64,000 nucleotides of DNA from an uncultured bacterium. Its GTDB lineage: Bacteria; Eisenbacteria; RBG-16-71-46; CAIMUX01. The DNA lies in the NCBI GenBank assembly GCA_964473865.1, contig CAYYQN010000002.1, positions 145,793 through 209,792 on the forward strand, in the 5' to 3' direction. Position numbers and translations under genes: made by a program. Positions 19,160-56,527 of the stretch are shown in pieces. Numbering within the stretch: the first letter of the stretch is position 1; every line of letters begins with the position of its first letter. The notes below the pieces were generated by a model. The model did no database searches. It saw only the letters and a program-made list of their open reading frames with translations, and had not been told where the DNA came from.

Positions 19160-20817
<1,658 letters not shown>

Positions 20818-20821
<4 letters not shown>

Positions 20822-22218: not shown

Positions 22219-22222
22219 CAGG

Positions 22223-24145: not shown

Positions 24146-25062
24146 CAGCGCCCGAGGGGCACGGTTCCGTTCCCGCCCCGGCCCGGGAGGCGGTAGCGCG
24201 CGTGCTGTCGAATCGGCAGCTCATTCCGGGAATCTTCGAGATCGCGCTGGCGCTCCCCGCGAAATGGGGCCCGGCGCAACCGGGTCAGTTTGTACAACTG
24301 GCCTGTCCGCCCCTGCCGGCATTCGGCCTACGCCGGCCATTCAGCCTGGCCGCTTGCGACGTTTCTGCAGAGAGGGTCGAGGCTCGGATCGTGTATGGGG
24401 CGATCGGCCTGCGGACACGCGAGCTCTCGCAGGCGCCTCCCGGCTCCCGGCTCCCGCTACTGGGACCGCTTGGCCGCCCGTTCGCTCCGCCCGCCGGACG
24501 CCGCGCGGTCCTGCTCGGAGGGGGGCGAGGACTGGCCCCGGTACTGATGCTGGCGGAACGGCTCAGGCGGGACGTCGATCCCCGGAAGCCTCGGCGCGAC
24601 GCCGGCAGCGATCGCCTGGCACCCGGGGCGGGCCGCGAGCCCGCACTCCTCCTGCATGGAGCTCGCACCGCAAGCCAGCTCCTGCCCCTGCCCGACCCGC
24701 CGTGTCCGGTCCGGCTGGCCACGGACGACGGGAGCGAGGGACTCCACGGGACCCTGATCGACCTCCTGCAGTCGTTGCTGGATTCCGGCGAGATTCGGGA
24801 GGGACGCGACGCTCTCTACGCCTGCGGGCCCAACCGCATGCTTGCCGCGCTCGCCGCCTGGACCGCCCGGCGTGATCTTCCCTGCCAGGTCTCCTTGGAG
24901 ACGCACTTTGGCTGCGGTCTCGGGATCTGCGCCGGATGTGCGGTACCGGTGAGGGCACAACCCGGCGTCGAGGCGTCGGCGTTCGAGCGGTTCGCGTTTC
25001 TCTGCCGGGAGGGACCGGTGATGGATGCGCAACGGGTCGATTGGACCGGGGTGCCCGAGTGA
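24142..25062 (+). CDS. pyrK: Dihydroorotate dehydrogenase electron-transfer subunit
   Basis: Ferredoxin-reductase-like FAD/NAD fold with a C-terminal 2Fe-2S Cys cluster (CQVSLETHFGCGLGICAGCAV). Confidence 0.85.
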   Translation: MTAPEGHGSVPAPAREAVARVLSNRQLIPGIFEIALALPAKWGPAQPGQFVQLACPPLPAFGLRRPFSLAACDVSAERVEARIVYGAIGLRTRELSQAPPGSRLPLLGPLGRPFAPPAGRRAVLLGGGRGLAPVLMLAERLRRDVDPRKPRRDAGSDRLAPGAGREPALLLHGARTASQLLPLPDPPCPVRLATDDGSEGLHGTLIDLLQSLLDSGEIREGRDALYACGPNRMLAALAAWTARRDLPCQVSLETHFGCGLGICAGCAVPVRAQPGVEASAFERFAFLCREGPVMDAQRVDWTGVPE

Positions 25063-26048
25063 GCTCGCACGAAGACCAGAGCCGCAACGATCGCGGTGTG
25101 CCCGGACCGACCCGTGGTCCCGGCTTCCCGGGTCCGTCGCTGGCGGTGAGCGTGGGGTCGGTGCGCCTGGCGAACCCGGTACTCACCGCCTCCGGCACCT
25201 TCGGCTACGGTGACGAAGACGCAGAGCTCACCGGGGTGCGCGACCTCGGCGGAATCGTCACGAAGACGATCACCCTGGAGCCGCGTGCGGGAAACGCGCC
25301 TCCCCGCATCTGGGAGACTCCCTCCGGGATGCTGAATTCGATCGGTCTCCAGAACGTTGGTGTCGACCGCTTCTGCGCGGAGAAGATGCCGCGGCTCGCC
25401 GGGCTGGGGGTGCCGATCATCGTCTCGGTGGGCGGCCGGCGGGCCGAGGAGTTCGTGGATACGGTGCGGCATCTGGAGGGTGTCGCCGGAATCACGGCCT
25501 ACGAGGTCAACATCTCCTGCCCGAACGTGAAGGAAGGCGGGATCGAGTTCTGTCAGGACCCCGCGGCCGCGGCCGCGGTGGTCGCCAGCGTCCGCAAGGT
25601 GAGCCGTCGCCCGATCTGGGTCAAGCTGAGCCCGAACGTAACCCGGGTGGGCGTGGTGGCGCGCGCGGCCGCCGATGCGGGGGCCGATGGAATCACGGCC
25701 ATCAACACCTTCGTCGGCCTCTGCGTGGATGTCCGCACGCGGAGGAGCCGCCTGTCTGCCGGTACCGGAGGGCTGTCCGGTCCCGCCATTCGTCCCTTGG
25801 CCCTGGCCCGGGTGCGGGAGGCGGTGCGCTCGGTGGCGATTCCGGTTGTCGGGTGCGGCGGCATCGTGACCGCGGAGGATGCGCTGGAGTTCCTGGTCGT
25901 CGGCGCCCGGGCGGTGCAGGTGGGCACTGCCTCTTTCGCCAATCCCCGGGCGGCGCTCGACATGGTCGCGGGGATCAGGGGGTTTCTGGCCGCCGAGAAC
26001 CTGGCCTCAGTGGAATCTCTGATCGGCACCTACCGGGAGGGAACATGA
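25059..26048 (+). CDS. pyrD: Dihydroorotate dehydrogenase catalytic subunit (class 1B)
   Basis: GTG at 25059 overlaps the pyrK stop (GTGA). Conserved motifs LANPVLTASGTFGYG, NSIGLQN and NISCPN. Confidence 0.9.
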   Translation: MSSHEDQSRNDRGVPGPTRGPGFPGPSLAVSVGSVRLANPVLTASGTFGYGDEDAELTGVRDLGGIVTKTITLEPRAGNAPPRIWETPSGMLNSIGLQNVGVDRFCAEKMPRLAGLGVPIIVSVGGRRAEEFVDTVRHLEGVAGITAYEVNISCPNVKEGGIEFCQDPAAAAAVVASVRKVSRRPIWVKLSPNVTRVGVVARAAADAGADGITAINTFVGLCVDVRTRRSRLSAGTGGLSGPAIRPLALARVREAVRSVAIPVVGCGGIVTAEDALEFLVVGARAVQVGTASFANPRAALDMVAGIRGFLAAENLASVESLIGTYREGT

Positions 26049-26770
26049 CCGATACCCGACCCCCGGGCCCGCCCCGGCCGCAATCGGCCGGAGACCGGCT
26101 CATCGTGGCCCTTGACTTTCCGGACGCCGCCGCCGCATTGGCGATGGTCGATCGCCTGGGCGAGGACGTGAGGTGGTTCAAGGTCGGGATGGAGCTCTTC
26201 TACGCGGAGGGGCGCGGGCTCCTCGATGCGCTGCACGGGCGCGGCAAGCGGATCTTCCTCGATCTCAAGCTCCACGACATCCCGAACACCATGGTCATGG
26301 CATGCCGGAGTCTCTCCCGTCTCCCGGTGGATCTCTGCACGCTGCACATCCCCGCGGGACCCGAAGCCTTGCGGGCCTGTGCCGCCGAGGCGCGACGGAT
26401 CGCCGACGCGGAGGGTCCCGTGATCGGTCTGCTCGGCGTCACCCGCCTCACCAGCCTTTCCCCCCCGGATCCCACCGAGCCGTGGCGGGATGTGGTCGAG
26501 CTGGCGGGCCGGGCGGCACAGGCCGGCGTATTCGGTTGGATTGCGCCCGCCGCGGCGGCGCCGCTCCTGCGGGCGGCGCACGGCAGTGGGCCGGCGTTGG
26601 TCTGTCCGGGAATCCGGCTCCCGGAGCAAGGCCGCCAGGACCAGGTGATGGTGGGGACTCCCGAGGAAGCGGTGCGCGGTGGTGCCGACTGGATCGTCGT
26701 CGGAAGGCCGATCACGCGGGCCGAGGAACCGGCCAGGGCGGCCCGGGAGTTCGTACGCCGCCTGGGCTGA
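26045..26770 (+). CDS. pyrF: Orotidine 5'-phosphate decarboxylase
   Basis: ATG at 26045 overlaps the pyrD stop. Motifs LIVALDF, FKVGMELF and FLDLKLHDIPNT. Confidence 0.85.
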   Translation: MTDTRPPGPPRPQSAGDRLIVALDFPDAAAALAMVDRLGEDVRWFKVGMELFYAEGRGLLDALHGRGKRIFLDLKLHDIPNTMVMACRSLSRLPVDLCTLHIPAGPEALRACAAEARRIADAEGPVIGLLGVTRLTSLSPPDPTEPWRDVVELAGRAAQAGVFGWIAPAAAAPLLRAAHGSGPALVCPGIRLPEQGRQDQVMVGTPEEAVRGGADWIVVGRPITRAEEPARAAREFVRRLG

Positions 26771-28845: not shown

Positions 28846-29989
28846 GGAGTCCCGCGCGCGGGTTCCGGCAGGCACCGGCCCCGTCCTGGTGACGGGCGGG
28901 GCGGGGTTCATCGGCTCCCACCTGGTCGAGGCGCTGCTCCGGCGCGGGGAGCGGGTCCGCGTGCTCGATGACCTCTCCACCGGCTCGCTCGACAACCTCG
29001 CCGCCTGCAGCCGGGAGGAGCGCCTGGAGGTCGAGATCGGCACCGCGCGGAACGCGGAGACATTTCGCCGAGTCCTCGACGGCTGCACCGCGGTCTTCCA
29101 TCTGGCCGCGTCCGTCGGGGTCGGCATGGTCACCGCGGACCCGGCGGAGTGCCTGCGCAACAACGTCGAAGGGGTGCAGAACCTCGTGGCCGGCATTGCC
29201 GCGCTGAAGTCGCTGCCGCGGGTCATGCTCTTCTCCAGCTCCGAGGTCTACGGCAAGTCGGACCGCGTCCCGCTCCGGGAGAGCGGCGATCTGGTGCTTG
29301 GCCCGAGCGACGTCCCGCGCTGGTCCTACGCCTCGGGCAAGGTGATGGGAGAGTTCCTGGTCCTGGCCGAGCACCTTCGCACCGGCTTGCCGGCCACCGT
29401 CGTGCGTTGCTTCAACACCTGCGGGCCCCGGCAGCTTCCGACCTACGGGATGGTGGTGCCGCGCCTGCTCGGTCAGGCTCTCCGTGCCGAGCCGCTCACT
29501 GTCTTCGGCGACGGGCTCCAGTCGCGGTGCTTCTCCTATGTCGGCGATGTGGTGGGAGCCGTGCTCAATCTGGCGGATCGGTCGGAGACGGTGGGAGAGG
29601 TGTACAACGTGGGTTCCGACCGCGAAACCACCGTGCTGGAGCTGGCGGCCCGAGTTCAGGGGGTGACCGGGTCCTCTTCGCAGGTTCGCCTGGTGCCCTA
29701 CTGCGAGGCATACGGCGATCGCTTCGAGGATGTCCGGCGCCGCGTTCCGGACCTCACCAAGATCCGGCGCGTGCTGGGTCAGTTGCCGCTCACCGACCTC
29801 GACACGCTGCTCCATCTGACCTGGCGGCACATCGTCGCCTCCGGCAACGGAGCCAGGCCGGGCTCGGGCGCGTCCACCCCGGTGCCTGGCGGCCTGCGCG
29901 CCGTCACCGGGCGTGCGGCGGCGGCCCGTGGGGCGCCGGATGTCTCCTCGATCTCGTCTTCCCCCGCCACGGGGCATCCCACCGCCTGA
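28838..29989 (+). CDS. NAD-dependent epimerase/dehydratase (UDP-sugar 4-epimerase/decarboxylase family)
   Basis: VLVTGGAGFIGSHLV Rossmann motif, catalytic YASGK, and an extended SDR fold. The C-terminal roughly 50 aa are low complexity. Confidence 0.8.
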   Translation: MVEESRARVPAGTGPVLVTGGAGFIGSHLVEALLRRGERVRVLDDLSTGSLDNLAACSREERLEVEIGTARNAETFRRVLDGCTAVFHLAASVGVGMVTADPAECLRNNVEGVQNLVAGIAALKSLPRVMLFSSSEVYGKSDRVPLRESGDLVLGPSDVPRWSYASGKVMGEFLVLAEHLRTGLPATVVRCFNTCGPRQLPTYGMVVPRLLGQALRAEPLTVFGDGLQSRCFSYVGDVVGAVLNLADRSETVGEVYNVGSDRETTVLELAARVQGVTGSSSQVRLVPYCEAYGDRFEDVRRRVPDLTKIRRVLGQLPLTDLDTLLHLTWRHIVASGNGARPGSGASTPVPGGLRAVTGRAAAARGAPDVSSISSSPATGHPTA

Positions 29990-30006
29990 GGCGCGGCGGC
30001 CAGGCG

Positions 30007-31149
30007 GTGTCGTTCGACCTCCCACTCGCTCTTGTTCTCCCCGGCCTGACCGCATTCGGTGTCGCCGGTGGTACGGCGCCCGCCTGGAGTCGCCGCCTGC
30101 GGGGCCGAGGCTGGACGGACAATCCTCGTCCGGACCGGCACGCGACCCGTGTGGTGTCGCGCGCGGGAGGCGCAGCCTGGCTGTCCGGCCTGCTTGCCGG
30201 TCTGACGGTCGCGATGGCGAGGGCGATTCTGATCGGACCCGGCGCCGCGGCACCAGGCGCGGGTCCCGGCCCGGGAGATCCACGTGACGCGCTGGCTGCC
30301 TGGGCGCCGGGCCTGTCCGGACGCGTGGCGCTCGGCCCGGCGACGCTCGCCGCCGCAGCCCTGCTGGCCTTTCTGGTCGGCCGGCTCGATGATCGGGGGC
30401 TCCTCGGTCCGGCGCGCAAGTGGACCCTCCAGGCCGGCGTGCTGGCGGGAGGCGCCGCAGGCCTGTTTCTCCTGGCGGAACGATTCTGTTGGATTCCGCC
30501 GGCGAGTACCGGGATCGAACCCCGAGCCTCGGCTTGGGGAGCGCCGCTCTGGCCACTGGCGCTCGCGTTCGGCGCCGGTCTGATGCTCCAGGTGGCCCTG
30601 GAGATCCTCGACCACCTGGACGGCCTCCTGGCTGTGAACGCGGCAGCGGCCGCGGCGGCCCTGGCGCTGGCCGGGCCGGCTGGCTGGCCTCGCGAGGCCG
30701 GGCTCGCCGCCTGCGGAGCCTCCCTGGGCTTTCTCTGCTGGAACCGACCGCCGGCCCGCTTCTATCTGGGCAATGGCGGAAGCCTTGCGGTAGCCACCGT
30801 GCTGCCGCTCCTGCTCTTCGCCGCGGCGCTCTCCGGAATCGGCTTGGAGATCCCGGACGCCGGCGGGTTCACGGCACCCGCGGGGCAACCGCTGAGCCGG
30901 TCTTCCGGTCCGGATGGCCTCTCGCCGTGGCGTTTCGCCGCGGTCCTGCCCGCCTTCGCATGGCCGCTCGCCGACTTCCTGTTCGTGACCGGGGCTCGAC
31001 TGAAACGCGGCGACCCGCCCTGGAGAGGGGGGCGAGATCATCTGGCCCATCGCCTCGCGCGTCGTCTGCGATCGGACGCGGCCTCATTCGCGATCGTTGC
31101 GGTTGTGGCCGTCTGCGGGTTCTTCCTGGCCGCCACGGCGTTGCGTTGA
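30007..31149 (+). CDS. Polyprenyl-phosphate N-acetylhexosamine-1-phosphate transferase (WecA/MraY family)
   Basis: Multi-TM protein with a DDxxGL-type motif (VGRLDDRGLLGP) and a WecA-like C-terminal segment (FLCWNRPPARFYLGNGGSLAV). The ORF-track start at 29149 overlaps the epimerase, so the start is moved to GTG 30007 with uncertainty. Confidence 0.55.
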   Translation: MSFDLPLALVLPGLTAFGVAGGTAPAWSRRLRGRGWTDNPRPDRHATRVVSRAGGAAWLSGLLAGLTVAMARAILIGPGAAAPGAGPGPGDPRDALAAWAPGLSGRVALGPATLAAAALLAFLVGRLDDRGLLGPARKWTLQAGVLAGGAAGLFLLAERFCWIPPASTGIEPRASAWGAPLWPLALAFGAGLMLQVALEILDHLDGLLAVNAAAAAAALALAGPAGWPREAGLAACGASLGFLCWNRPPARFYLGNGGSLAVATVLPLLLFAAALSGIGLEIPDAGGFTAPAGQPLSRSSGPDGLSPWRFAAVLPAFAWPLADFLFVTGARLKRGDPPWRGGRDHLAHRLARRLRSDAASFAIVAVVAVCGFFLAATALR

Positions 31150-31232
31150 CCGACCGGCGTCCCCGTGCTAGCGTCGCTCGTCGCAACGTTGGTGTCGGGG
31201 GCGCCTCCACCGGTCGTCCGGAAAGGTCCGAA

Positions 31233-32513
31233 ATGCTCGATCTGAAGTTCATCCGGTCTGATCCGGATCGGGTTCGCCGTGGGCTTGAGGCCAAGAACGC
31301 CCGACACGAGCTGGACCGGATCCTATCGCTCGATGCGGAGCGCCGCCGTCTTCTCCAGGAAGTCGAGACCAGGAAGGCGGAACGAAACCGGAGCTCTCAG
31401 GATGTGCCGCGTCTGAAGACCCAGGGCCAGGACGTCTCCGGTCTCCTCGCCTCGATGAAGCGGTTGGCGGACGAGATCAAGGAGTTGGACGGACGCGTGA
31501 AGGAGTCCGACAGCGAGCTGGAGACCCTGCTTTCCTGGGTGCCCAACCTGCCGCACGAGTCGGTGCCGGTCGGACCCGACGCCTCGGCGAACGTCGAGAT
31601 CCGCCGCTGCGGTCCGCTTCCGACGCCGGCGTTCCGCCCGCGATCGCACTGGGAAATCGGCGAGGAGCTGGGGCTGCTCGACTTCCGGCGCGCCGCTCGC
31701 CTGTCTGGAAGCGGTTTCACCGTCTTTACCGGCCCGGGGGCTCGTCTGCGCCGAGCGCTGATCCGGTACATGCTCGACCAGCACATCCACGACGGCTTCC
31801 TGGAGGTCTCCGTGCCGTACCTGGTGCGGCGCGAGTGCATGTACGGGACCGGACAGCTTCCCAAGATGGAAGAGGACATGTACCACTGCCCGGTGGACGA
31901 CCTCTTTCTCATTCCCACTGCCGAGGTGCCCATCACCAATCTGTACCGGGATGAGGTGCTGGCCGAGTCCGATCTCCCGGTGCGTCTGGTCGGGGAGTCG
32001 CCCTGTTTCCGGCGAGAGGCGGGGACCTACGGCAAGGAGACCCGGGGACTGGTGCGGGTGCACCAGTTCGACAAGGTGGAGATGGTCAAGATCGTCGATC
32101 CCGCCACTTCGTACGACGAACTGGAATCGCTCACCGCTTCCGCCGAGAAGGTGCTCCAGGGGCTGGAGTTGCCGTATCGCGTCCTGGCCCTGGCCAGCGG
32201 CGACCTGTCGTTTGCCGCCGCCAAGTGCTACGACCTGGAGGCGTGGGCCCCGGCAGAGGATCGTTGGCTCGAGGTCTCCTCGTGCAGTAACTTTGAGTCG
32301 TTTCAGGCGCGGCGAATCGGGCTGCGCTACCGTAACGCCGCGGGGAAGCTGGAGCACCCGCACACGCTCAACGGGTCGGGGCTCGCCCTCCCGCGCGTAT
32401 TCGTCGCCCTGCTGGAGGTTCATCAGACCGAACGGGGTACGGTGCGGGTGCCGGCCGCCCTGCAGCCGTACCTGGATGGCCTGCAGGAACTGGGACCGCC
32501 GCCCGGACGCTGA
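31233..32513 (+). CDS. serS: Seryl-tRNA synthetase
   Basis: ATG at 31233 (MLDLKFIRSDPDRVRRGLEAKN...). N-terminal coiled-coil arm and class II motifs (FRREAGTYGKETRGLVRVHQFDKVE; GSGLALPRVFVALLE). Confidence 0.9.
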   Translation: MLDLKFIRSDPDRVRRGLEAKNARHELDRILSLDAERRRLLQEVETRKAERNRSSQDVPRLKTQGQDVSGLLASMKRLADEIKELDGRVKESDSELETLLSWVPNLPHESVPVGPDASANVEIRRCGPLPTPAFRPRSHWEIGEELGLLDFRRAARLSGSGFTVFTGPGARLRRALIRYMLDQHIHDGFLEVSVPYLVRRECMYGTGQLPKMEEDMYHCPVDDLFLIPTAEVPITNLYRDEVLAESDLPVRLVGESPCFRREAGTYGKETRGLVRVHQFDKVEMVKIVDPATSYDELESLTASAEKVLQGLELPYRVLALASGDLSFAAAKCYDLEAWAPAEDRWLEVSSCSNFESFQARRIGLRYRNAAGKLEHPHTLNGSGLALPRVFVALLEVHQTERGTVRVPAALQPYLDGLQELGPPPGR

Positions 32514-32534
32514 CCGGGCGGGGAAGGGAGCGCG

Positions 32535-33737
32535 ATGCGGTCCTCGGGTGCCTCTCCGCAGCTTCTGCGAGCCTACTTCTTCATCGGAGCGCTTCTTCTC
32601 GTCGGCGCCTCGGGTGTATACACGACCTACCTGGCTGGGAGAGTCAAGAAGCAGACCCAGGACTACGCGGACCTGCTCGCCCGCTTCAGCGCCAGCGCCA
32701 CGTTGACCGCCATCGACAATCCGGAGGTGCGGCGCCTCTTCGAGGTGGTCCGGCGGTCCGATCTGCCCCTCGTGCTCACCGACGACCGCGGCCATCCCCG
32801 CGTGTGGAAGCTACCGCCGGGAGCCGACTCCTCGCAGGTGGACCGGTATCTTCGCGAGTTCGACCGCCGCAACCGTCCGATCGACATCCTGACGGCGGAG
32901 GGTCGGGTCTTCGGCCGCATCCACTACGGGGAGCCGGCCCTCGTCAAGCGCCTGCGCTGGGTTCCCGTGGTTCAGATCGCGGCCATCCTCCTCTTCGTGG
33001 CCGTGGGCTACGTGGGTTACTCCAGCATCAAGCAGAGCGAGCAGCGGGCCATCTGGATCGGGCTCGCCAAGGAGACTGCACATCAGCTCGGGACTCCCAT
33101 CTCCTCGCTCCTGGGCTGGGTGGAGCTCCTGCGGGAGCGCCAGGTGGAGGCGGGGCAGACTGAGGGGATGGTGCGACTGCCCGAGGTCTTCCTGAGCGAG
33201 ATCCTCGACGAGATGGAGAACGACGCGGAACGGCTCCAGAAGGTGGCGATGCGGTTCGGCCAGGTCGGGAGCCTGCCTCGGCTCGAAGTGCAGGATGTCG
33301 CGCCGATCGTGAGCGAAGCGGTGCGGTACTTCCGCCGTCGCATTCCCCACCTGGGCCGGAACGTCGAGATCCGCGAGCGGTACGAGCTGGTGCCCCCGGT
33401 CAGCGTGAACAAGGAGCTGATCGAGTGGGTGGTGGAAAACGTCCTGAAGAATGCGGTCGATGCCACCGACCGACAGCACGGGATCATCGAAGTGGAGGTG
33501 GTGCGTCGCCGCGAAACCGAGACGGTGGAGATCCGGGTCATCGATCAGGGCAAGGGGATGTCCCCCGCGGAGATGAAACTGGTCTTCGCCCCCGGGTTCA
33601 CGACGAAACAGCGCGGATGGGGGCTCGGCCTTACCCTGGCCAAACGGATCGTGGAGGAGTACCACGGCGGGCGGGTCTGGTTTGCGCACAGCTCACCCGG
33701 CGAGGGATCCACTGTCGTCATCTCGTTCCCAGCCTGA
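32535..33737 (+). CDS. Sensor histidine kinase (PorY-like partner of the adjacent PorX-type regulator)
   Basis: Two TM helices flanking a periplasmic segment, HisKA with the phospho-His (ETAHQLGTPISSL), and a HATPase_c with N/G boxes (NAVDAT; GKGMS; GWGLGL). Confidence 0.7.
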   Translation: MRSSGASPQLLRAYFFIGALLLVGASGVYTTYLAGRVKKQTQDYADLLARFSASATLTAIDNPEVRRLFEVVRRSDLPLVLTDDRGHPRVWKLPPGADSSQVDRYLREFDRRNRPIDILTAEGRVFGRIHYGEPALVKRLRWVPVVQIAAILLFVAVGYVGYSSIKQSEQRAIWIGLAKETAHQLGTPISSLLGWVELLRERQVEAGQTEGMVRLPEVFLSEILDEMENDAERLQKVAMRFGQVGSLPRLEVQDVAPIVSEAVRYFRRRIPHLGRNVEIRERYELVPPVSVNKELIEWVVENVLKNAVDATDRQHGIIEVEVVRRRETETVEIRVIDQGKGMSPAEMKLVFAPGFTTKQRGWGLGLTLAKRIVEEYHGGRVWFAHSSPGEGSTVVISFPA

Positions 33738-33809
33738 CGCCCCGGCGGGAACCGGCGTTGCCTGCCGTGCGTTCACCTCTGGGCGGGGACGGTGCGCCGA
33801 AGGGGGTAG

Positions 33810-35387
33810 ATGATGACCAGCACGCGGCGGCGCATACTTTGGGCCGATGACGAAATCGACATGCTTCGTCCCCACATCCTCTACCTGCAGGGGAAGGGGT
33901 TCGAGGTTGTCGCGGTTTCCAATGGCGAGGACGCGCTCCAGCTTGCCGAGAAGGAGCGTTTTGACGCCGTTCTTCTCGACGAAATGATGCCCGGCCTCGG
34001 CGGACTCGCCGTCCTGGAAGCGATCCAGGCTGCGGATGCGAGCCTGCCGGTCATCATGGTGACGAAGAGCGAGGAAGAGAACCTGATGGACCGCGCGCTC
34101 GGCCGGCGCATCAGCGACTACCTGACGAAGCCGGTCAATCCGAGCCAGGTCTTTCTCGCGATCAAGAAGGTGCTCGAAAGCGAGGCGCTCCAGCGGACCC
34201 AGAAGACCCGGGACTACGTGGCGGAGTACAACCGCATGCTCTCGCTGCGACACGGCGACCTCGACTGGCGGGACTGGCTGGAGCTCTACCGCGGTGTGGT
34301 CGACTGGGATCTCGAGCTGCGCGGCATGCAGAACGAGAGCCTCCTCCAGGCGCACCTGGACCAGAAAGTCCAGCTCAACCGGGAGTTTGGGCGCTTCATC
34401 GAGACGAACTACCGAGGCTGGCTGGGAAAGCCCCGCGCGGAGCGCCCGCCGCTCTCGGTCGATATCTTCAGCGAGTGGCTTCTGCCGCATCTGCAGGCGG
34501 ATCGCCGGCTGGCCCTGGTGGTGATCGACTGCATGCGGCTCGATCAGTGGCGGATGCTGGAACCGCTGGTCGCCCCCTACTTCGAGGTTCGCACCGAGCA
34601 CTACTACGCGATCCTCCCGACGGCGACCCCCTATGCGCGCAACGCCATCTTCTCGGGGCTCTTTCCCCTCGAGGTGTATCGGCGCTTCCCCGACTGGTGG
34701 CTGGAGGAGGCGCCCAAGGAGGCGGGACGGAATCGGTACGAAAAGGAGTTGATGGAGGATCAGCTCAAGCGGAATCGCCTCTCTCCGGACACCATGCGGT
34801 ATCAGAAGATCTACACCGAGCAGGAGGGCAACCTGCTCCGCCGCAAGGTCGGCACCTGGGGAGACCGTCGATTCCTTGCCTTCGTCTTCAACTTCCTCGA
34901 CATGCTGGCGCACGGCCAGTCTGACTCCGAGATCCTGCACGAGCTGGCCCCGGACGAGGAGGCGCTGCGGAGGCTCCTGCAGTCGTGGTTTCAGCACTCT
35001 GTGCTCCTGGAGGTGCTGCGCATCCTCTCGCGCCAGAACACAGTGGTGGTCGTCACGAGCGACCATGGCCTGGTCCACTGCCGGCGCCCCTCCGTGGTCC
35101 TGGGCAACCGGGAGACCTCGACCAGCATCCGGTACAAGTACGGCGACAACCTGGTCTGTGACGAGAACGAGGCGATCCACATCCGAAAGCCGGACGAGTA
35201 CATGCTGCCGCCGGGACACCTGAACAAGCAGTACGTCCTGGCGCGGGAGAACTACTTCTTCGTGTATCCCACCAACCAGCACCACTACGAGCGGCAGTTC
35301 CGCGGAACCTTCCAGCATGGCGGCGTTTCTCTCGAGGAGATGGTGCTTCCGGTCACGACCCTCATCCCGCGCTCGTCCGAGGCATGA
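33810..35387 (+). CDS. porX: Response regulator with CheY-like receiver fused to a PglZ (alkaline-phosphatase-superfamily) domain; PorX-type T9SS regulator
   Basis: N-terminal receiver (ILWADDEIDMLRP...DAVLLDEMMPGLGG...KPVNP) and a roughly 390-aa C-terminal PglZ-like domain (LVVIDCMRLDQW...VVTSDHG). This architecture is characteristic of PorX. Confidence 0.8.
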   Translation: MMTSTRRRILWADDEIDMLRPHILYLQGKGFEVVAVSNGEDALQLAEKERFDAVLLDEMMPGLGGLAVLEAIQAADASLPVIMVTKSEEENLMDRALGRRISDYLTKPVNPSQVFLAIKKVLESEALQRTQKTRDYVAEYNRMLSLRHGDLDWRDWLELYRGVVDWDLELRGMQNESLLQAHLDQKVQLNREFGRFIETNYRGWLGKPRAERPPLSVDIFSEWLLPHLQADRRLALVVIDCMRLDQWRMLEPLVAPYFEVRTEHYYAILPTATPYARNAIFSGLFPLEVYRRFPDWWLEEAPKEAGRNRYEKELMEDQLKRNRLSPDTMRYQKIYTEQEGNLLRRKVGTWGDRRFLAFVFNFLDMLAHGQSDSEILHELAPDEEALRRLLQSWFQHSVLLEVLRILSRQNTVVVVTSDHGLVHCRRPSVVLGNRETSTSIRYKYGDNLVCDENEAIHIRKPDEYMLPPGHLNKQYVLARENYFFVYPTNQHHYERQFRGTFQHGGVSLEEMVLPVTTLIPRSSEA

Positions 35388-35887
35388 TCCTGCTGGTCTG
35401 GCGCAGCCCGAGCGAGGAGGCCACCGTCCGGTTCGGAATGGCGCTTGGTCGCGCGCTCACCGGTCCAGCCTGGATCGGCCTGCACGGGCCGCTGGGCGCG
35501 GGAAAGACCTGCTTCGCCGCCGGCCTGGCGCGGGGGCTCGGCTACTCCGGTCGCGTCCGCAGCCCGTCGTTTGTGCTGGAGCGCCGCTATCAGGGCCGGT
35601 GGCCGATTCTTCACCTCGATTACTACCGGCTCGAGGGCGACGACGGGGATCTGCGGGCCGGGTGGGAGGAGGAAACTGACGCCGTGGTGCTGGTGGAGTG
35701 GGCGGAGCGGGTGGCCACGCCTCCGCGCGGATCACTCACGGTTCGGCTGGTGCCCGATGGCGAGTCGCGCCGCTGGATCCACCTCGCCTGGACGGCGGGG
35801 GTGAGCCCGGTAGGCGATCTCCGCCTCGAGGAGATTCGGGAGCCGGGGCCGGGCGGGCCCTCTTCGGGGCCGGGAGCGAGCGCATGA
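35384..35887 (+). CDS. tsaE: tRNA t6A37 biosynthesis ATPase TsaE
   Basis: Walker A GPLGAGKT and SPSF/YHLDLYR-like motifs (SPSFVLERRY..., HLDYYRLEG). Confidence 0.8.
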   Translation: MILLVWRSPSEEATVRFGMALGRALTGPAWIGLHGPLGAGKTCFAAGLARGLGYSGRVRSPSFVLERRYQGRWPILHLDYYRLEGDDGDLRAGWEEETDAVVLVEWAERVATPPRGSLTVRLVPDGESRRWIHLAWTAGVSPVGDLRLEEIREPGPGGPSSGPGASA

Positions 35888-36609
35888 TCCGTCGCTGGGT
35901 CGCCGGCCCGGTTCTCGGCCTGGAGACCACAGGCAGGCTCACGGGGGCCGCGGTCTTCGCCGATGGGCGTCTCCTGGCCGAAAGCGCGCTCGACGCGCGG
36001 TCGCTCACCTCGGAACTGCTCCTGGCCCAGGCGGCGCAACTCCTCGAGTCGTGTCGCCTGACGCCGCGCGAACTGGTCCGGGTCGGAGTGGCGATCGGCC
36101 CGGGCTCGTTCACGGGGGTGCGGGTGGGACTGGCCTCCGCTCGGGCCCTGGCGGTCGGCGGGAACCTCGCGCTGGCGGGCGTTCCCTCTCATGAGGCCAT
36201 GGCCTGGCGATATCGAGACCTGGATCGGCCTCTGGCCATCCTCACCGGATTGCGTCGGGGCGAGGTCTTTCTCGAAGTCGGCCGTTGGGACGGCGACCAG
36301 TGGCGGCCGCTGTTCCCCGGCGCCGGCATCCCGGTCGACCGAGTGCGCGCCTGCCTCACTGCCGTGCCCGGCGCTGGGTCGTGCCTCTTGTTGGGCGAGG
36401 CGGCCGGTCTGCCAGATCTTGCCGGTGAGCTGGAGGGACTCGGCCGCCTGGTGGAAGAACCGCTCAGCGCGGCCCGGCGCCCGGCGCCCGTCGCGTGCCT
36501 GGCGGCGCGCCTGACCGCTCCCACGCTCCGCGGCGCGGATCTGGACTCGCTGGAGCCTTTGTACCTGCGAGCTGCCGACGCCCGGCGCCCCGAGGGACCC
36601 GGTGCCTGA
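35884..36609 (+). CDS. tsaB: tRNA t6A37 biosynthesis protein TsaB (YeaZ)
   Basis: ATG at 35884. YeaZ/Kae1-like N-terminus (VLGLETTGRLTGAAVFADGRLL..., GPGSFTGVRVGLA). Confidence 0.75.
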   Translation: MIRRWVAGPVLGLETTGRLTGAAVFADGRLLAESALDARSLTSELLLAQAAQLLESCRLTPRELVRVGVAIGPGSFTGVRVGLASARALAVGGNLALAGVPSHEAMAWRYRDLDRPLAILTGLRRGEVFLEVGRWDGDQWRPLFPGAGIPVDRVRACLTAVPGAGSCLLLGEAAGLPDLAGELEGLGRLVEEPLSAARRPAPVACLAARLTAPTLRGADLDSLEPLYLRAADARRPEGPGA

Positions 36610-36775
36610 GGAGCCGCCGGTCCGGCCGCCGGGCCTCCCCCATCCGGGAGATCCTCCAGGCTCGTGCGCCGCCGGCGACACGGAGGATCGGGGTCGTCGG
36701 CCCCCGGCGGCCTCCCCGGGATCTCCGGGCTCCCCAGACGCGAGACCGGCCCCACCCGGTTCGTCCATCGTTCCG

Positions 36776-37267
36776 ATGGCGGAAGCGCATCTGGCGCAGA
36801 TCGTCCGCCTGGAGCGACGGATCTTTCCCGACCCGTGGTCAAAGCGCGCGTTTCGCGAGGAGTTGGCCCGCGCCGCGCGGGGCGGGTATTCTCGCGTCCT
36901 TGTGGAATCAGGGGCGGTCCGCGCCTACAGCGTGGCCTGGTTTGTCGCGGACGAGGCGCACCTGGCGAACCTCGCGACCGATCCAGGACATCGCGGGCGC
37001 GGCCTGGCCGGAGCGCTCCTCCGGGATTTCCTGTCCGAAGCCCGGTGCCGAGGAACCGCCAATGTCTGGCTCGAGGTCCGGACCGGCAACGCCGTGGCGA
37101 TCGGGCTCTACCAGGCGCATGGCTTCCGCGCGGCGGGAGTCCGGAAAGGGTACTATCGGAAGGAGCGCGAGGACGCGCTGGTGATGGTGCTCCCGCTGGA
37201 GGCGGAGACGGGCCAAGGGGAGGGGCTTCTGGATGGCGGATCGGGCGGAGTCGAAGGGGAAGGATGA
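36776..37267 (+). CDS. rimI: Ribosomal-protein-alanine N-acetyltransferase RimI (GNAT)
   Basis: GNAT motifs (LANLATDPGHRGRGLAGALL; LEVRTGNAVAIGLYQAHGF). ATG at 36776. The upstream part of the ORF-track frame is Pro-rich and probably non-coding. Confidence 0.7.
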   Translation: MAEAHLAQIVRLERRIFPDPWSKRAFREELARAARGGYSRVLVESGAVRAYSVAWFVADEAHLANLATDPGHRGRGLAGALLRDFLSEARCRGTANVWLEVRTGNAVAIGLYQAHGFRAAGVRKGYYRKEREDALVMVLPLEAETGQGEGLLDGGSGGVEGEG

Positions 37268-38099
37268 CGGGTCGCCCGCGCCGCCCGGCACCTGGGTGAA
37301 GTGCCCGGGCTGTGACGAGATCCTCTCTCGGCAGGGGCTGGAGCAGGCACTCTGGGTCTGCCAGAGCTGCGACCACCACTTCGGGATATCGCGCGACGGG
37401 ATCTCGGCGCTGGAGTACGTGAACCTGTTGGTCGATCCTGGTTCCTTCACCGAGCTCTTCGGCGGGATCACCTCGGTCGATCCGCTGGGATTCCGGGACT
37501 CGATCCGCTACAAGGATCGTCTGGCCAAGGCCACCGCCGGCGGCCGGCGGGAAGCGGTGATCACCGGTCGTGGCTCCCTCGACGGCCTGCCCCTCCATCT
37601 GGCGGTGATGGACTTCGGATTCCTGGGCGGCAGCATGGCCTCGGCGGTGGGGGAGAAGATCACCCGCACCGCACAGGAAGCGCTCCGCGCCGAGACTCCC
37701 CTGGTCATCGTGTCTTCCTCCGGGGGGGCGCGGATGCAGGAAGGGATCTTCTCGCTGATGCAGATGGCCAAGACCTCGGCGCTTCTGGCGCGACTCGCCG
37801 AGGCCCACCTCCCCTTCGTCTCGATCTGCACGCATCCCACCACCGGAGGCGTGACCGCGAGCTTCGCGTCGCTGGGCGATGTCATCCTGGCCGAGCCCGG
37901 CGCGCTGATCGGATTCGCCGGGCAACGGGTGATCGAGCAGACGATCAAGCAGAAGCTGCCCGAGGGCTTTCAGCGCTCCGAGTTCCTCCTCGAGCATGGG
38001 ATGATCGACCGAATCGTGCCCCGCCGGGAGATGCGCGAAACCCTCTCCACGCTCTTGCGGCAGTTCATGGACGCGCGATCGGCGCGCGGTTCCGCGTGA
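37233..38099 (+). CDS. accD: Acetyl-CoA carboxylase carboxyltransferase beta subunit
   Basis: N-terminal Zn ribbon (CPGCDEIL...CQSCDHH) and the carboxyltransferase body. Confidence 0.85.
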   Translation: MADRAESKGKDDGSPAPPGTWVKCPGCDEILSRQGLEQALWVCQSCDHHFGISRDGISALEYVNLLVDPGSFTELFGGITSVDPLGFRDSIRYKDRLAKATAGGRREAVITGRGSLDGLPLHLAVMDFGFLGGSMASAVGEKITRTAQEALRAETPLVIVSSSGGARMQEGIFSLMQMAKTSALLARLAEAHLPFVSICTHPTTGGVTASFASLGDVILAEPGALIGFAGQRVIEQTIKQKLPEGFQRSEFLLEHGMIDRIVPRREMRETLSTLLRQFMDARSARGSA

Positions 38100-39466: not shown

Positions 39467-40439
39467 CATTGGCGGGACTGCCGTGAAGGCCGGCCGGCTC
39501 GGGCCGGAGGGTGCGATCGAGGCGCGCCTGGAGCGGCCGAGCCCGGCGCAAGAGAGGCCGGCGGTGATGGCCGCCCTCCTGGCCGACATGGCCCGAGAGC
39601 TGGGCCTGCCCGCTTTCCGGCCTGCGCCGGCGCCGGAAGAGACGGCGGGCCGCCTGGACACCCCATTCCCTCTCGGAATCGGCTGCGCCGGCCTCGTTGA
39701 TCCCTGGCGGGGCCTGGTGCTCACATCTCCAAACCTGCCCGGCTGGCAGCCGGAAGTCCCGCTTGCCGAGCTGGTGGAGCGGGAAGTCGGGGTCCAGCCG
39801 GTGTTGTTGAACGATGCCAACGCCTTCGTCCTGGCTGAGACCCGGCTGGGTGCGGGGCGGGGTGCTCGGACCGTTGTCGGAATCACAATGGGCACGGGCG
39901 TTGGGGGGGGGCTGGTTCTGGACGGCACCCTCTGGATCGGCCGGCATGGCGCGGCGGGCGAGATCGGGCACGTCCCGCTGATGGTGGATGGCCCCCTCTG
40001 CGTATGCGGGGCCCGGGGCTGCCTGGAGTCTCTCGTCGGCTCGCGCGCCATTCTCGCGCGTCACCGGACGCTCGGTGGATCTCCCGCCCTCGCCCGGAAC
40101 GATCACCCGCAGTGCGCGCCGGCGCCGCTCACGGTGTATCTGCTCGCCCAGCGAGCGGCGGATGGAGACGCCGCGGCGATCGCGACCTTCACCGAGACCG
40201 GACGGCTCCTGGGGCTGGCGCTGGCCGGCCTCACGCAGCTGCTGGATCCGGAACTGTTCGTGGTGGGGGGCGGGATCTCGCGCTCGGCCCCGCTGTTCCT
40301 TCCCGCGGCGCGCCGCGCCCTCGAGGGGGCGGCCATGCTGCCCGCGGCGATGCAACCTCGGGTGGTTCCGGCAGTTCTCGGGCCCGACGCGGGATGGATC
40401 GGCGCGGCGCGAGCCGCGGCCGAAGGGAGCGCGGGGTGA
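39438..40439 (+). CDS. ROK-family sugar kinase (glucokinase-like)
   Basis: ROK N-terminal ATPase motif (LGFDIGGTAVKAG) and the ROK Zn motif (GHVPLMVDGPLCVCGARGCLE). Confidence 0.75.
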   Translation: MGMRPALGFDIGGTAVKAGRLGPEGAIEARLERPSPAQERPAVMAALLADMARELGLPAFRPAPAPEETAGRLDTPFPLGIGCAGLVDPWRGLVLTSPNLPGWQPEVPLAELVEREVGVQPVLLNDANAFVLAETRLGAGRGARTVVGITMGTGVGGGLVLDGTLWIGRHGAAGEIGHVPLMVDGPLCVCGARGCLESLVGSRAILARHRTLGGSPALARNDHPQCAPAPLTVYLLAQRAADGDAAAIATFTETGRLLGLALAGLTQLLDPELFVVGGGISRSAPLFLPAARRALEGAAMLPAAMQPRVVPAVLGPDAGWIGAARAAAEGSAG

Positions 40440-43400
40440 GGGCCGCGCGACGAGCCGCCGCCGTAGTTCTCGTCTCGCTGCTGGCGGCGGCGAGGCCGGC
40501 CCCGGCGCAGACGGAGTCCTCGTCCGGTGCGCCGGTACTCGCCTCTTCCCGGTCCGACGCGACCGGCGCGAGCGCCGCCCCGGCGGACTCCGCCGGGCGA
40601 TCCGTCGTCCGCCCGGCTGCCGCCGATCGCCAGTCCGCGCCGGCCGGCGCAAGCGAACCCTGGTTCATCGAGGGGGAATCGCTGCACGGGACCAGCCAGA
40701 GCGGCACCGAACTGCGCGTGCCGCACATCACCCATGGAGTGCTCGACATCAGGGCCCGAGCCGGGCACATGAGCCCGGACCGCGAGATTCTCTCCCTGCG
40801 CGACTCGGTCGTCATCGCGGACACGGCGCGCACGCTCATGTCCAACGAAGGGATCTACCGCCGGACCCCGCGCCTTCTCGACATGGCCGGCGACGTCCGG
40901 GGAGAGGGGCCCGAGGGGGATTTCCGCTGCACGGACCTCACCTGGGATCGGCTGAGTGGGCGCCTGATCCTGCGCGGGGAGCCGGTCCTGACCGAGCTGG
41001 ACCGCGTCCTCGAGTCCGCGCGCATCGAGTACGACACCGAGTCGCGCCGCGGCCTGGCGTTGGGCCGCGTCCGGATTCTGCTGCTCCCAGACTCGGTGCG
41101 GGCCTTCGGCGAACGCTGCGACTACGACGACCGGTCCGGTCGCTCCGTGCTGACCGGCGAGCCGCGTCTCGTGGTTCCGGGAGGCGCGGATGCGCCCGAG
41201 ATGGTCGTGCGCGCCGACACCCTGGTGTTGCATGAGCTGGATCGGTCCGGTGAGGCGATCGGGTCCGTGCACATCGTTCGGGGCGATCTGCGCACCCGGA
41301 GCCGGCGGGCGCAATTCCGTCTCGAGCAGAATCGAATCGATCTCACGGGTGAGCCGGTCGCGTGGGATCTCGACGGGGACATCCGCGCCGACACCATGTC
41401 CGTACGGGTGCGCGAGCGGAAGGCCGATCAGTTGCGCGCGTGGGGCTCCGTCCGGGTTCGCTATGAGCCGCGCGACAAGGCCGGGGAGCGAAACCTGATC
41501 TTCGGCGACACCCTCACGGCCGGACTCTCCGGAGGCGCGCTTACCGGGATGAAAGTCTACGGGCGCGCCCAGAGCCTCTATCTGCCCGCGATCCGGGACG
41601 TTCTCACCGGCAGCGGGCGAAACCTGAGCCAGGCACGGGAGATCCACGTGTTTCTGCGCGAGGGGCAGGCGCAGTGGGTGGATCTGATCGGGAAGGCCTC
41701 CGGCACCTATCTCTATCCAAGTGACGCCACGCGCCGCCGTCTCCGCGAGCCCGCGATCCTCGATTCCATCGTTCCGGCCTGGGTTCGCGAGCCCGCTCCC
41801 GCGCGGGATCCGGGGGCGGAGCCGCCCCCTCTGAGCGAGTTCCTCCAGGCTTTCGTTCGTGAGCGGAGCCTCGCGTTTCCCGACAGCGGCGGCTCATTCG
41901 ATCAGCTCTTCAATGAACGCGTCGAGTATGAGGCGGACACCATACGTTTCTTCGTGCCGGAGGACCGGATCCGCCTGCAGGGAAACGGCGGGCTGCGCTA
42001 TCGCGAGAGCACGCTCAAGTCGGGCCGGATCGACTACGACGCCGAACGCCGGCTGGTGCTGGCGTTCGAGAAGCCGGAGCTCAGTGACGGTCAGAGCACC
42101 GTGACCGGCGTGAAGATGACCTACCGCACCGACGAACAGGAGGGGATCGTCTATCGCGGCCGAACCGAATTCGACGGCGCATGGTACTGGGGGCGCGAGG
42201 TGAAGAAGCTGCCGGGCAACGAGCTTCTGGTGAAGCGGGGCGACTACACCACTTGCGATCTCGACAGCGCGCCCCACTATCACTTCAGCTCCGGCCGCAT
42301 GAAGCTCATCCAGAAAGACAAGGCCGTGGCCCGACCCGTGGTTCTCTACATCAAACGGATTCCGGTGCTTGCCCTGCCGTACTACATCTTCCCGCTCCGA
42401 AAGGGCCGGCACTCGGGAATCACCATGCCCGAGATGGAGGTGGGCTTCAACCGCAACGCGGGTCGGTTCGTCCGCAACCTCGGGTACTACCTCGCGCTCT
42501 CCGACTACATGGATGCCCGGGCCTGGTTCGACTACTACGAGCGCGGGCCGCGCTACTACCTGAACGGAGAGTATCGGTACCGGGTGCGCTATCTCCTGGA
42601 TGGAAACGTGGACGCATCGTGGCTGCGCGAGACGAACGACTACGGCGGGCGGAGCCGAGGGTGGAGTCTGCAGAGCGCGCACTCCCAGACCCTGGGCAAG
42701 AACGCCACCGCGAAAGTCTCCACCAACTTCACGACGAGTCAGACCTTCCGTGGAGATCAGAACTTCGGCGCCGGGATCGACGAGCGCCTGAATCGAAAGC
42801 TGAAATCCTCGTTGGAGCTGCGCAAGGGTTGGTCGCGAACCAGCTTCAGCGCAGGCGCGACGCGCACCGAGTACCTGGACGAGACGACCGGCTCCGGCGT
42901 GAAGATGCAGGTCGATGGTCCTTATGCGGACTTCACTTTGAACACCGGAGCCTTGGGGCGGGCTCCGGATGCGTCCGGCCGGAGCGGACATTGGGCGGCG
43001 CTCTCCTCAGTGTCGTACGGCACGAACTTTCGCTATCGAACCACCTACGAGCGGCGCTTCAACGGAAAGCGTACGACCGGCCGCGCGTTCCAGCAGAACG
43101 TCAGCCTCTCCGACAACCGCCGGCTGGGCCCCTTTCTGCGTCTGAGCCCCTCGCTGAACGCGAGTTGGGCTCTGTTCGGGCGCGACAACCAGGGTCGTGG
43201 CAATCAGGTCGGAGCCTCCTGGTCCTTCGGCACTTCCGCGTCGAACACGCTGTACGGGACCTATCTCTTCCCGGCGGGGCCCTTGGCCGGGCTGCGGCAC
43301 ATCGTCGAGCCCTCCGTGAGCTGGGGCTTTAGCCCGGAGTTGAAGTCGCTCACCTATGCGGACCCCGCCGACTCCACCGGGCAGAGGCGGCTGGCGCGCT

Positions 43401-44158
43401 TTCCGTCGGTCGGGGGAATCTCGCTCAGCGGCACCAAGCGCTCGGCGCTTTCCCTCTCGGTGAGCCAGCGCGTGCACGCGAAGTGGAAGCTTGGTTCCCG
43501 GGTCGTGAAGCAGGAGAACCTGCTCACCTTCACCACCAGCTCTTCCTATGACTTCCTGGCGAAGTCCGTGCCGGGGCAGCGCACCCGCCGGTTCTCCTCC
43601 ATCAGCAACAGCCTCCGGTTCCGGCCCTGGTCAAGCTTCGAAACGTCGGCATCCGTCAGCCACGACCCCTACCGGCGGGTGCCGCTGTCATTCAGCATCC
43701 GGACCGACGCGACGATCACGGCGGCCACCTTCGCCGGGTCGCGCGACTCCGTGGGCACATCTGAACAAACGTATGGTGAATTTGGGAGCGTCGCGAACCA
43801 GGGACCGGCGAGCAGTCAGAGGCGGTTTCCGGCTTCCCCGGCGACTTCGAATCTCACCTGGTCATCCCAGATCATCCACTCCTACTCCACAACCCGAGGC
43901 GTCTCCACTCCAACCAAAAGCCTGACACTGAATCTCACCATTTCGTTTCGCCCGACGGCAAAGTGGAGGTGCGACGGCAGCGTCTATGCGGACGTTCGCG
44001 AACGGGAGGTCATCTCCCACTCGTTCAGCCTGAATCGCGACCTCCACTGCTGGGAGCTGCGCTTCAACCACCGCACGGTCGGGGGGCGTTCCGAGTACTT
44101 CTTCCACGTGGGCATCCGGCAGCTTCCGGAGGTGAAGTACGAGCGAGAAAGCCGGTAG
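40436..44158 (+). CDS. lptD: LPS-assembly outer-membrane protein LptD-like (OstA family), unusually long with repeated N-terminal OstA-like beta-jellyroll segments
   Basis: GTG at 40436 gives a signal peptide (AAVVLVSLLAAARPAPAQ). The N-terminal roughly 450 aa show repeated OstA/LptA-like segments. The central LptD-like core includes YTTCDLDSAPHYHFSSGRMKL, followed by a long beta-barrel-like C-terminus ending in a conserved aromatic residue. Confidence 0.65.
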   Translation: MRAARRAAAVVLVSLLAAARPAPAQTESSSGAPVLASSRSDATGASAAPADSAGRSVVRPAAADRQSAPAGASEPWFIEGESLHGTSQSGTELRVPHITHGVLDIRARAGHMSPDREILSLRDSVVIADTARTLMSNEGIYRRTPRLLDMAGDVRGEGPEGDFRCTDLTWDRLSGRLILRGEPVLTELDRVLESARIEYDTESRRGLALGRVRILLLPDSVRAFGERCDYDDRSGRSVLTGEPRLVVPGGADAPEMVVRADTLVLHELDRSGEAIGSVHIVRGDLRTRSRRAQFRLEQNRIDLTGEPVAWDLDGDIRADTMSVRVRERKADQLRAWGSVRVRYEPRDKAGERNLIFGDTLTAGLSGGALTGMKVYGRAQSLYLPAIRDVLTGSGRNLSQAREIHVFLREGQAQWVDLIGKASGTYLYPSDATRRRLREPAILDSIVPAWVREPAPARDPGAEPPPLSEFLQAFVRERSLAFPDSGGSFDQLFNERVEYEADTIRFFVPEDRIRLQGNGGLRYRESTLKSGRIDYDAERRLVLAFEKPELSDGQSTVTGVKMTYRTDEQEGIVYRGRTEFDGAWYWGREVKKLPGNELLVKRGDYTTCDLDSAPHYHFSSGRMKLIQKDKAVARPVVLYIKRIPVLALPYYIFPLRKGRHSGITMPEMEVGFNRNAGRFVRNLGYYLALSDYMDARAWFDYYERGPRYYLNGEYRYRVRYLLDGNVDASWLRETNDYGGRSRGWSLQSAHSQTLGKNATAKVSTNFTTSQTFRGDQNFGAGIDERLNRKLKSSLELRKGWSRTSFSAGATRTEYLDETTGSGVKMQVDGPYADFTLNTGALGRAPDASGRSGHWAALSSVSYGTNFRYRTTYERRFNGKRTTGRAFQQNVSLSDNRRLGPFLRLSPSLNASWALFGRDNQGRGNQVGASWSFGTSASNTLYGTYLFPAGPLAGLRHIVEPSVSWGFSPELKSLTYADPADSTGQRRLARFPSVGGISLSGTKRSALSLSVSQRVHAKWKLGSRVVKQENLLTFTTSSSYDFLAKSVPGQRTRRFSSISNSLRFRPWSSFETSASVSHDPYRRVPLSFSIRTDATITAATFAGSRDSVGTSEQTYGEFGSVANQGPASSQRRFPASPATSNLTWSSQIIHSYSTTRGVSTPTKSLTLNLTISFRPTAKWRCDGSVYADVREREVISHSFSLNRDLHCWELRFNHRTVGGRSEYFFHVGIRQLPEVKYERESR

Positions 44159-56160: not shown

Positions 56161-56243
56161 GGAGGGATGGCCGAGCGGTTGAAGGCAACGGTCTTGAAAA
56201 CCGTCGGTCGCAAGACCCGTGGGTTCGAATCCCACTCCCTCCG
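56161..56243 (+). tRNA. tRNA-Ser (anticodon TGA)
   Basis: Cloverleaf folds by hand: acceptor GGAGGGA/TCCCTCC, anticodon loop cuUGAaa, long variable arm, T-loop GGTTCGAATCC. Confidence 0.85.
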
Positions 56244-56260
56244 CAGTCGGTGGATCGATC

Positions 56261-56352
<92 letters not shown>

Positions 56353-56453
56353 CTCTTGGCGACGGGAGACGAGTGCGGACGGCTCCTCAACGCTCGTGGC
56401 TGAGCGGTGCCGGGTCGGTCCGCGGCGGGGTTCTCGGATCGGGATACCTGTTC

Positions 56454-56527
56454 GCGCCCATGGCTCAACTGGATAGAGCATCTGACTACGGATCAGAAGG
56501 TTGGGGGTTCGAATCCTCCTGGGCGCA
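56454..56527 (+). tRNA. tRNA-Arg (anticodon ACG)
   Basis: Acceptor GCGCCCA/TGGGCGC, D-arm GCTC-AACTGGATA-GAGC, anticodon stem TCTGA/TCAGA with loop CUACGGA, T-loop GGTTCGAATCC. Confidence 0.85.

Follow-up and report, generated by a model that had tools for sequence, protein, structure and literature searches.

The question raised by the locus described here is whether a receiver-PglZ protein encoded among housekeeping genes of an uncultured Eisenbacteria bacterium is the response regulator PorX of type IX secretion systems (T9SS), and whether the histidine kinase (HK) encoded next to it is its partner. The analysis covered a 64-kb stretch of contig CAYYQN010000002.1 (hereinafter referred to as the window). 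The regulator gene (33810-35387, + strand; 525 aa) encodes a CheY-like receiver, a helical linker and a phosphodiesterase domain of the PglZ/alkaline phosphatase superfamily, and is preceded by the gene for a sensor HK (32535-33737, +; 400 aa). A first-pass annotation, made from the letters alone, had proposed a PorX/PorY-type pair in an unusual context and had predicted a functional T9SS. In the reading that we consider well supported and probable, the two genes constitute an operon-encoded two-component system with a true PorX in a Candidatus Eisenbacteria-like genome, and they lie in a serS-HK-porX-tsaE-tsaB-rimI-accD cluster kept throughout the FCB-type phyla.

The domain fusion that had been taken as the hallmark of PorX was borne out by profile and pairwise searches. 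In Pfam, Response_reg (2.8e-23, residues 9-118) and PglZ (2.9e-17, residues 233-427) were detected. The match to the NCBIfam equivalog NF052313 (T9SS_RR_PorX) reached 640.8 bits (cutoff, 300), and residues 8-521 covered positions 2-513 of the 513 in the model. Full-length phmmer matches were obtained to the solved structures of Porphyromonas gingivalis PorX (PGN_1019; PDB 7pv7, 7.6e-134, 450.6 bits) and Flavobacterium johnsoniae PorX (PDB 8ted, 8.6e-133, 447.2 bits), which have the same length and the same three-part architecture as the window protein.

The residues that carry the chemistry of PorX were also retained. Metal-ligand and catalytic residues of P. gingivalis PorX are D239, T272, D361, H365, D415, H416, and H500 (Schmitz et al., PMC9757075), and in a comparison with that protein, which had been suggested along with the initial annotation, all seven were found in the window PorX as D240, T273, D364, H368, D418, H419, and H503, forming an intact two-zinc PglZ site with Thr273 at the nucleophile position. 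The phosphate contacts were kept as R277 and N361 (equivalents of R276 and N358). The phospho-acceptor D57, which aligns with D58 of P. gingivalis, was invariant in 81/81 sequences. Thus, the phospho-acceptor Asp, the catalytic Thr, and all zinc ligands are identical to those of the P. gingivalis and F. johnsoniae proteins. For residue and synteny counts, relatives were taken from a scan of species-representative genomes, and the best 80 of the 588 loci found were used; the metal-ligand, phosphate-contact, and phospho-acceptor positions were essentially invariant across these 80 related PorX sequences. Judged by sequence, the regulator is a true PorX orthologue. As annotation this is routine, since standard pipelines would already call the gene PorX.

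A PglZ domain also occurs in the phosphatase/nuclease of BREX-type phage-defence systems, which has the PglZ fold and the metal-ligand set in common with PorX (PMC9757075), and weak matches of the window protein to BREX PglZ models were indeed detected (NF033449, BREX_PglZ_3, 96.9 bits; PADLOC PglZ models, no more than 68.9 bits). These scores, however, were well under the BREX cutoff of 250, and the grouping with PorX anticipated beforehand holds, with 641 bits for the PorX model against at most 97 for the BREX models. Further, the window protein has an N-terminal receiver domain, which is absent from BREX PglZ proteins, and its neighbourhood (serS, the HK gene, tsaE, tsaB, rimI, accD, folC) is purely housekeeping, with no brxC, pglX, or brxL adjoining. 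Membership of a BREX system was therefore rejected, and its probability is negligible.

The cluster begins with serS (seryl-tRNA synthetase; 31233-32513, +; TIGR00414, 488.9 bits against a cutoff of 301.65) and is tightly packed on one strand in the order serS-HK-porX-tsaE-tsaB-rimI-accD-folC, with junctions, from serS/HK to accD/folC, of +21, +72, -4, -4, +166, -35, and -4 nt. The tsaE gene (35384-35887, +) encodes an ATPase-kinase of the TsaE/YjeE/UbK family (Pfam TsaE 2.6e-27; TIGR00150, 69.6 bits against 60.1), and its start codon shares letters with the porX stop codon in an ATGA at 35384-35387. A second ATGA junction with a 4-nt overlap connects tsaE to tsaB (35884-36609, +; dimerisation subunit of the t6A complex; TIGR03725, 116.7 bits against a cutoff of 69.3). 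The S18-alanine N-acetyltransferase gene rimI (36776-37267, +; TIGR01575, 109.8 bits against a cutoff of 86.4) completes the canonical tsaE-tsaB-rimI unit and is followed by accD (37233-38099, +; TIGR00515, 357 bits). Each of the HK and porX reading frames starts at the first start codon past an in-frame stop, so that neither can be extended at its 5' end. Coding bias was strong in both (G+C content of 0.86-0.87 at third codon positions versus 0.37-0.43 at second positions; 0.64-0.72 in the window). Rfam and tRNA scans detected no RNA element in or beside the cluster, and a promoter/terminator scan of 29900-37400 gave counts near shuffle expectation, which is uninformative on the limits of the operon. 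A region of 1.24 kb (29990-31232), which separates serS from a sugar epimerase/dehydratase gene, shows no convincing open reading frame (ORF). Its plus-strand frames lack coding-type third-position G+C, a minus-strand ORF (29779-31050) is of low complexity and rich in R, G, E, and Q, and 70% nucleotide identity over 648 nt was found to the syntenic region of a related locus, without an Rfam match; its coding status is ambiguous.

To place this arrangement among relatives, the window proteins were searched by tblastn against the 80 loci, which carry about ten FCB-type phylum labels. The gene directly 3' of porX on the same strand was tsaE in 71/75 evaluable loci with about ten phylum labels, and the distance from the porX stop to the tsaE start, projected by homology, was at most 30 nt in 55/76 loci (median, 9 nt). 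A kinase gene was located directly 5' of porX in 36/71 loci with about eight phylum labels, and within 10 kb upstream on the same strand in a further 18; serS flanked the kinase gene in 46. Downstream, tsaB and accD come after tsaE in most loci: accD was present within 2.7 kb 3' of porX in 47/60 and tsaB was detected in 44/69, a count that may be too low, since conservation of TsaB is poor and tblastn with the window protein was the sole means of finding it. In one Eisenbacteria group (L005, L006, L009, L013, L014, L025, L027, L028, L037, and L038), 1-6.5 kb of unrelated genes separate the kinase gene from porX, while serS-HK and porX-tsaE are intact. These inserts are heterogeneous and show no common theme; their genes include one for an MCP-like protein, some for lipoproteins that end in 'GGGPxLRxRxxDGSI', and others.

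The counts thus define serS-HK-porX-tsaE-tsaB-rimI-accD as a common arrangement. The tight linkage to serS and tsaE noticed in the first-pass annotation is correct, serS ending 21 nt before the HK gene and porX overlapping tsaE by 4 nt, but its description as an unusual context does not hold, since the porX-tsaE adjacency is near-universal among the relatives and also occurs in P. gingivalis (PMC13241743), and serS-HK-porX is common as well. The gene context in the window is a normal and anciently conserved home of porX. At the P. gingivalis porX locus, tsaE lies 11 nt 3' of porX on the same strand, as in the window, and no kinase gene, serS, tsaB, rimI, or accD was found nearby; only tsaE is kept there, so porX-tsaE is the sole link surviving everywhere. 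The operonic HK-porX arrangement likely came first, with the 'orphan' porX of P. gingivalis probably a derived condition.

The kinase itself contained HATPase_c (2.1e-22, residues 295-399), a weak HisKA match, an H-box with His183, and two hydrophobic segments (TM1, residues ~10-33; TM2, ~140-165). Its AlphaFold model (pLDDT 85) showed a small α/β periplasmic module (residues 63-140), and a HAMP domain is predicted to be lacking because TM2 passes directly into the DHp helix. A fold search with the model returned an HK853-like catalytic core; the matches were generic kinase cores, with nothing specific to the sensor module. Kinases adjoining porX in other phyla aligned to the window HK over their full length, sensor included, with 34-48% identity, and sensor residues including P78, G86, P88, W91, and G132 were invariant among 58 homologues, which suggests a conserved ligand or partner. 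The periplasmic module (32634-32954; residues ~34-140) also bears the motifs FPxxxTDxxGxPxxW and HYGxPxxxxLRWxP, which were kept from Eisenbacteria to Ignavibacteria, Zixibacteria, Gemmatimonadota, and Fibrobacteraceae in kinases encoded upstream of porX (L015, L041, L044, L059, L060, and L077).

PorY of P. gingivalis (PGN_2001) is likewise a membrane HK with N-terminal transmembrane segments and a short periplasmic region followed by phospho-acceptor and ATPase domains (PMC4800418), and its ligand is the C-terminal domain (CTD) of PorA (PMC12152298). Unlike the window HK gene, which lies directly 5' of porX, porY is at a locus distant from porX, and both genes have been described as 'orphans' at separate loci (PMC4800418; PMC10951265; bioRxiv 10.1101/2024.05.15.594396). 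The partner kinase had been placed immediately upstream of porX, and that placement agrees with the 72-nt gap and with the porX-adjacent position in half of the evaluable related loci. The short gap and the adjacency across phyla argue that the HK is the presumed cognate partner of PorX, as far as gene order can indicate. It may still be such a partner without being an orthologue of PorY; in that case, Bacteroidia would have lost the operonic kinase, and PorY would have been recruited later in its place. Most Bacteroidota-labelled loci had no kinase gene within 10 kb of porX, as in P. gingivalis; deletion of porY does not fully mimic deletion of porX, for which other PorX kinases have been proposed (bioRxiv 10.1101/2024.05.15.594396); and no curated family matched the sensor domain. 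On the other hand, the architecture of the window HK is the one published for PorY, and relocation of a single gene is the simplest history. We regard the replacement of an operonic kinase as possible but the less probable course.

In nearly all relatives porX adjoins tsaE, and the product of the latter gene is a member of the UbK1/TsaE (YjeE, YdiB) family. Besides its TIGR00150 membership, the window TsaE contained the Walker A motif (GAGKT), the SPT/S-type motif (SPSF), the HxDxYR motif (HLDYYR), and the EW motif (VEWAE), and it matched the solved TsaE proteins PDB 5np9 and 6n9a. In P. gingivalis, porX-tsaE adjacency was found across 81 strains, and the TsaE-family kinase UbK1 phosphorylates PorX at Tyr79 in vitro (PMC13241743). 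Window tsaE and the UbK1 gene are both directly 3' of porX, but only in the window do tsaB and rimI follow, and because they do, the housekeeping t6A role of the window TsaE is likely retained. The tyrosine targeted by UbK1 is replaced by Ser78 in the window PorX, so that a coupling of TsaE to PorX, if general, would not proceed via that residue.

The junction could accordingly be inherited gene order without functional coupling, with tsaE simply a housekeeping t6A gene. The canonical tsaE-tsaB-rimI unit fits this explanation, as does the phosphosite, which is not conserved and whose mutation leaves P. gingivalis secretion unaffected (PMC13241743). Inherited order explains less readily why the adjacency was kept in 95% of loci under about ten phylum labels when every other neighbour varies, why tsaE alone persists beside P. 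gingivalis porX, and why the junction is usually no longer than 30 nt; phosphorylation of PorX by UbK1 in vitro also speaks for a functional connection. Mere inheritance of the order is therefore conceivable, with the balance leaning away from it.

The host had been called 'non-Bacteroidota-like', which stands in so far as it is not a classical member of the Bacteroidota: its high-GC, Eisenbacteria-like genome is unlike those of the P. gingivalis and F. johnsoniae hosts of PorX, the best-matching relative among the loci listed was a Candidatus Eisenbacteria metagenome-assembled genome (90% amino acid identity, same gene order), and most of the closest 40 relatives were labelled Eisenbacteria. 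More distant porX orthologues, at 45-55% identity, were found under the labels Latescibacterota, Zixibacteria, Krumholzibacteriota, Gemmatimonadota, Ignavibacteria, Chlorobiota, Calditrichaeota, Fibrobacteraceae, and Bacteroidota. In the NCBI taxonomy, Eiseniibacteriota is placed among candidate phyla and the sister labels in the FCB group, and GTDB-based work regards the Eisenbacteria phylum as a close relative of Gemmatimonadota and Latescibacterota (PMC10581226). The label calls for a qualification, since T9SS and CTD proteins have been assigned to the FCB superphylum in reviews (PMC12398890). The host falls outside the classical Bacteroidota, yet it is inside the radiation where a T9SS is expected. 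No relevant literature was found on T9SS in Eisenbacteria or its sister phyla.

Evidence for secretion within the window itself came from candidate cargo proteins. The C-terminal 110 residues alone were scanned with TIGR04183 (cutoff, 23 bits), and Pfam FlgD_ig (cutoff, 27) was used for comparison. The three CTD cargos reported previously exist as candidates, all with marginal scores. The first is an NHL/DUF11 repeat protein of 1884 aa with a putative type-A CTD (46711-52365, +; TIGR04183 25.4 bits, FlgD_ig 27.9), which is also ScyE-like; its stop-to-stop ORF reaches 46462 and its start codon is ambiguous. The second is a gingipain-family protease of 1594 aa, also with a putative type-A CTD (58062-62846, -; TIGR04183 24.3 bits, FlgD_ig 26.6). 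It contained Peptidase_C25 (1.7e-44) and Propeptide_C25 (1.1e-12), and its best PDB matches were the mature and pro-domains of RgpB. CARDB and CarboxypepD_reg domains were also present in this protein, which parallels the cargo classically under PorX control in P. gingivalis. As a PorU sortase the same protein was rejected (25 bits, where the cutoff is 420; gingipain RgpB as the best PDB match). The third is encoded at the edge of the window (63163-63978, -; TIGR04183 31.0 bits, 28.0 for the whole protein; FlgD_ig 45.4); its stop-to-stop ORF reaches 63999, and its N-terminus may lie outside the window. When whole proteins were scanned with TIGR04183, just one of the three passed.

A candidate for PorW/SprE, a tetratricopeptide repeat protein (22223-24145), was likewise rejected (66 bits against 250), and YbgF and BamD matched it better. 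This 640-aa lipoprotein-like product, which resembles YbgF/CpoB and BamD, is encoded within a pyrimidine cluster (19338-26770; pyrR-pyrB-pyrC ... pyrD-pyrF) that its gene splits.

Several observations weigh against the reading of the locus as a PorX-PorY-like system that serves type IX secretion. Searches of the predicted proteins of the 64-kb window revealed no core T9SS gene, and apart from the three CTD-bearing proteins none reached the cutoff of a T9SS component model. The CTD scores exceed the cutoff by just 1-8 bits, and FlgD_ig matches the same regions about equally. The sensor region of the HK had no match in curated Pfam or NCBIfam families and the HK no PorY-specific NCBIfam match, so that 'PorY' as a label for it would draw solely on architecture and adjacency. 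The position equivalent to Tyr79 is variable across the family, beyond the Ser78 of the window protein and the unaffected secretion of the Y79 mutant in P. gingivalis. Moreover, loss of PorX in F. johnsoniae has modest effects only on secretion (PMC13241743).

With these points in view, the PorX orthologue might instead be a general signalling hub in the Eisenbacteria-like lineage, turning over oligonucleotide second messengers in connection with genes for translation and tRNA modification, and the T9SS link might be specific to Bacteroidia. The most conserved neighbours (serS, tsaE, tsaB, rimI, and accD) are not T9SS genes, the window lacks the core machinery, and roles of PorX beyond T9SS have been reported together with the weak F. 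johnsoniae secretion phenotypes (PMC13241743). Against such a hub stand the first recognition of porX and porY by their co-occurrence with T9SS genes (PMC10951265), the CTD-bearing proteins, one of them gingipain-like, encoded 11-28 kb from porX, and the fact that all phylum labels with a porX orthologue belong to or cluster with the FCB group. A role detached from type IX secretion is rather unlikely. A functional T9SS in the host of the window is a plausible prediction.

For the preferred reading, an operonic two-component system with a true PorX, a sequence of steps can be proposed from its homology to the PorX proteins of P. gingivalis and F. johnsoniae (PMC9757075; PMC12152298; PMC5005315; PMC13241743). 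The HK would sense a periplasmic cue, possibly a CTD-bearing protein; in P. gingivalis, the cue is the CTD of the T9SS cargo PorA (PMC12152298). Autophosphorylation of the HK on His183 would be followed by transfer of the phosphate to Asp57 of PorX, and phosphorylation together with zinc would promote PorX dimerisation. The dimer may then be active as a phosphodiesterase cleaving oligoadenylates and pGpG, and its contacts with proteins such as PorL and SigP may raise T9SS output. In addition, the TsaE/UbK-type ATPase-kinase, presumably co-translated with PorX, could provide a probable second input on PorX.

Elsewhere in the window, an unusually long LptD-like outer-membrane protein (40394-44158, +; 1254 aa) is encoded next to a 390-aa protein (44740-45912, +), the C-terminal half of which resembles the multihaem cytochrome/UshA-like (seleno)protein family (179 bits against 275). 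Three consecutive tRNA genes, Ser(tga), Ser(gct), and Arg(acg), were also identified (56161-56528, +).

The PorX system of the window is thus known in kind and its context is typical. What is new is modest and lies in the superphylum-wide view, namely a kinase encoded in an operon with porX outside Bacteroidia, and a porX-tsaE junction kept almost everywhere. PorX and PorY have repeatedly been called atypical 'orphans' in the T9SS field, where it is asked which kinase or kinases really feed PorX; the HK encoded directly 5' of porX here and in 36 related genomes outside the class Bacteroidia is a specific candidate for the original cognate sensor. Further, porX-tsaE is the most durable neighbourhood feature across the superphylum and had previously been examined only within P. 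gingivalis strains; its durability makes a stronger case for a functional TsaE/UbK-PorX connection, and many natural porX-tsaE variants are now at hand. As a tentative extension, to which we give less than even credence, HK, PorX, and TsaE/UbK may form an ancient, FCB-wide three-gene module joined to serS and the t6A operon. On this view, PorX would have arisen as the regulator of an operonic two-component system with a TsaE-type kinase as its second input, coupling the state of the envelope or of secretion to translation and tRNA modification; in P. gingivalis, the orphan condition of porX and porY would be derived, and the kinase family represented in the window would be the ancestral cognate sensor of PorX.

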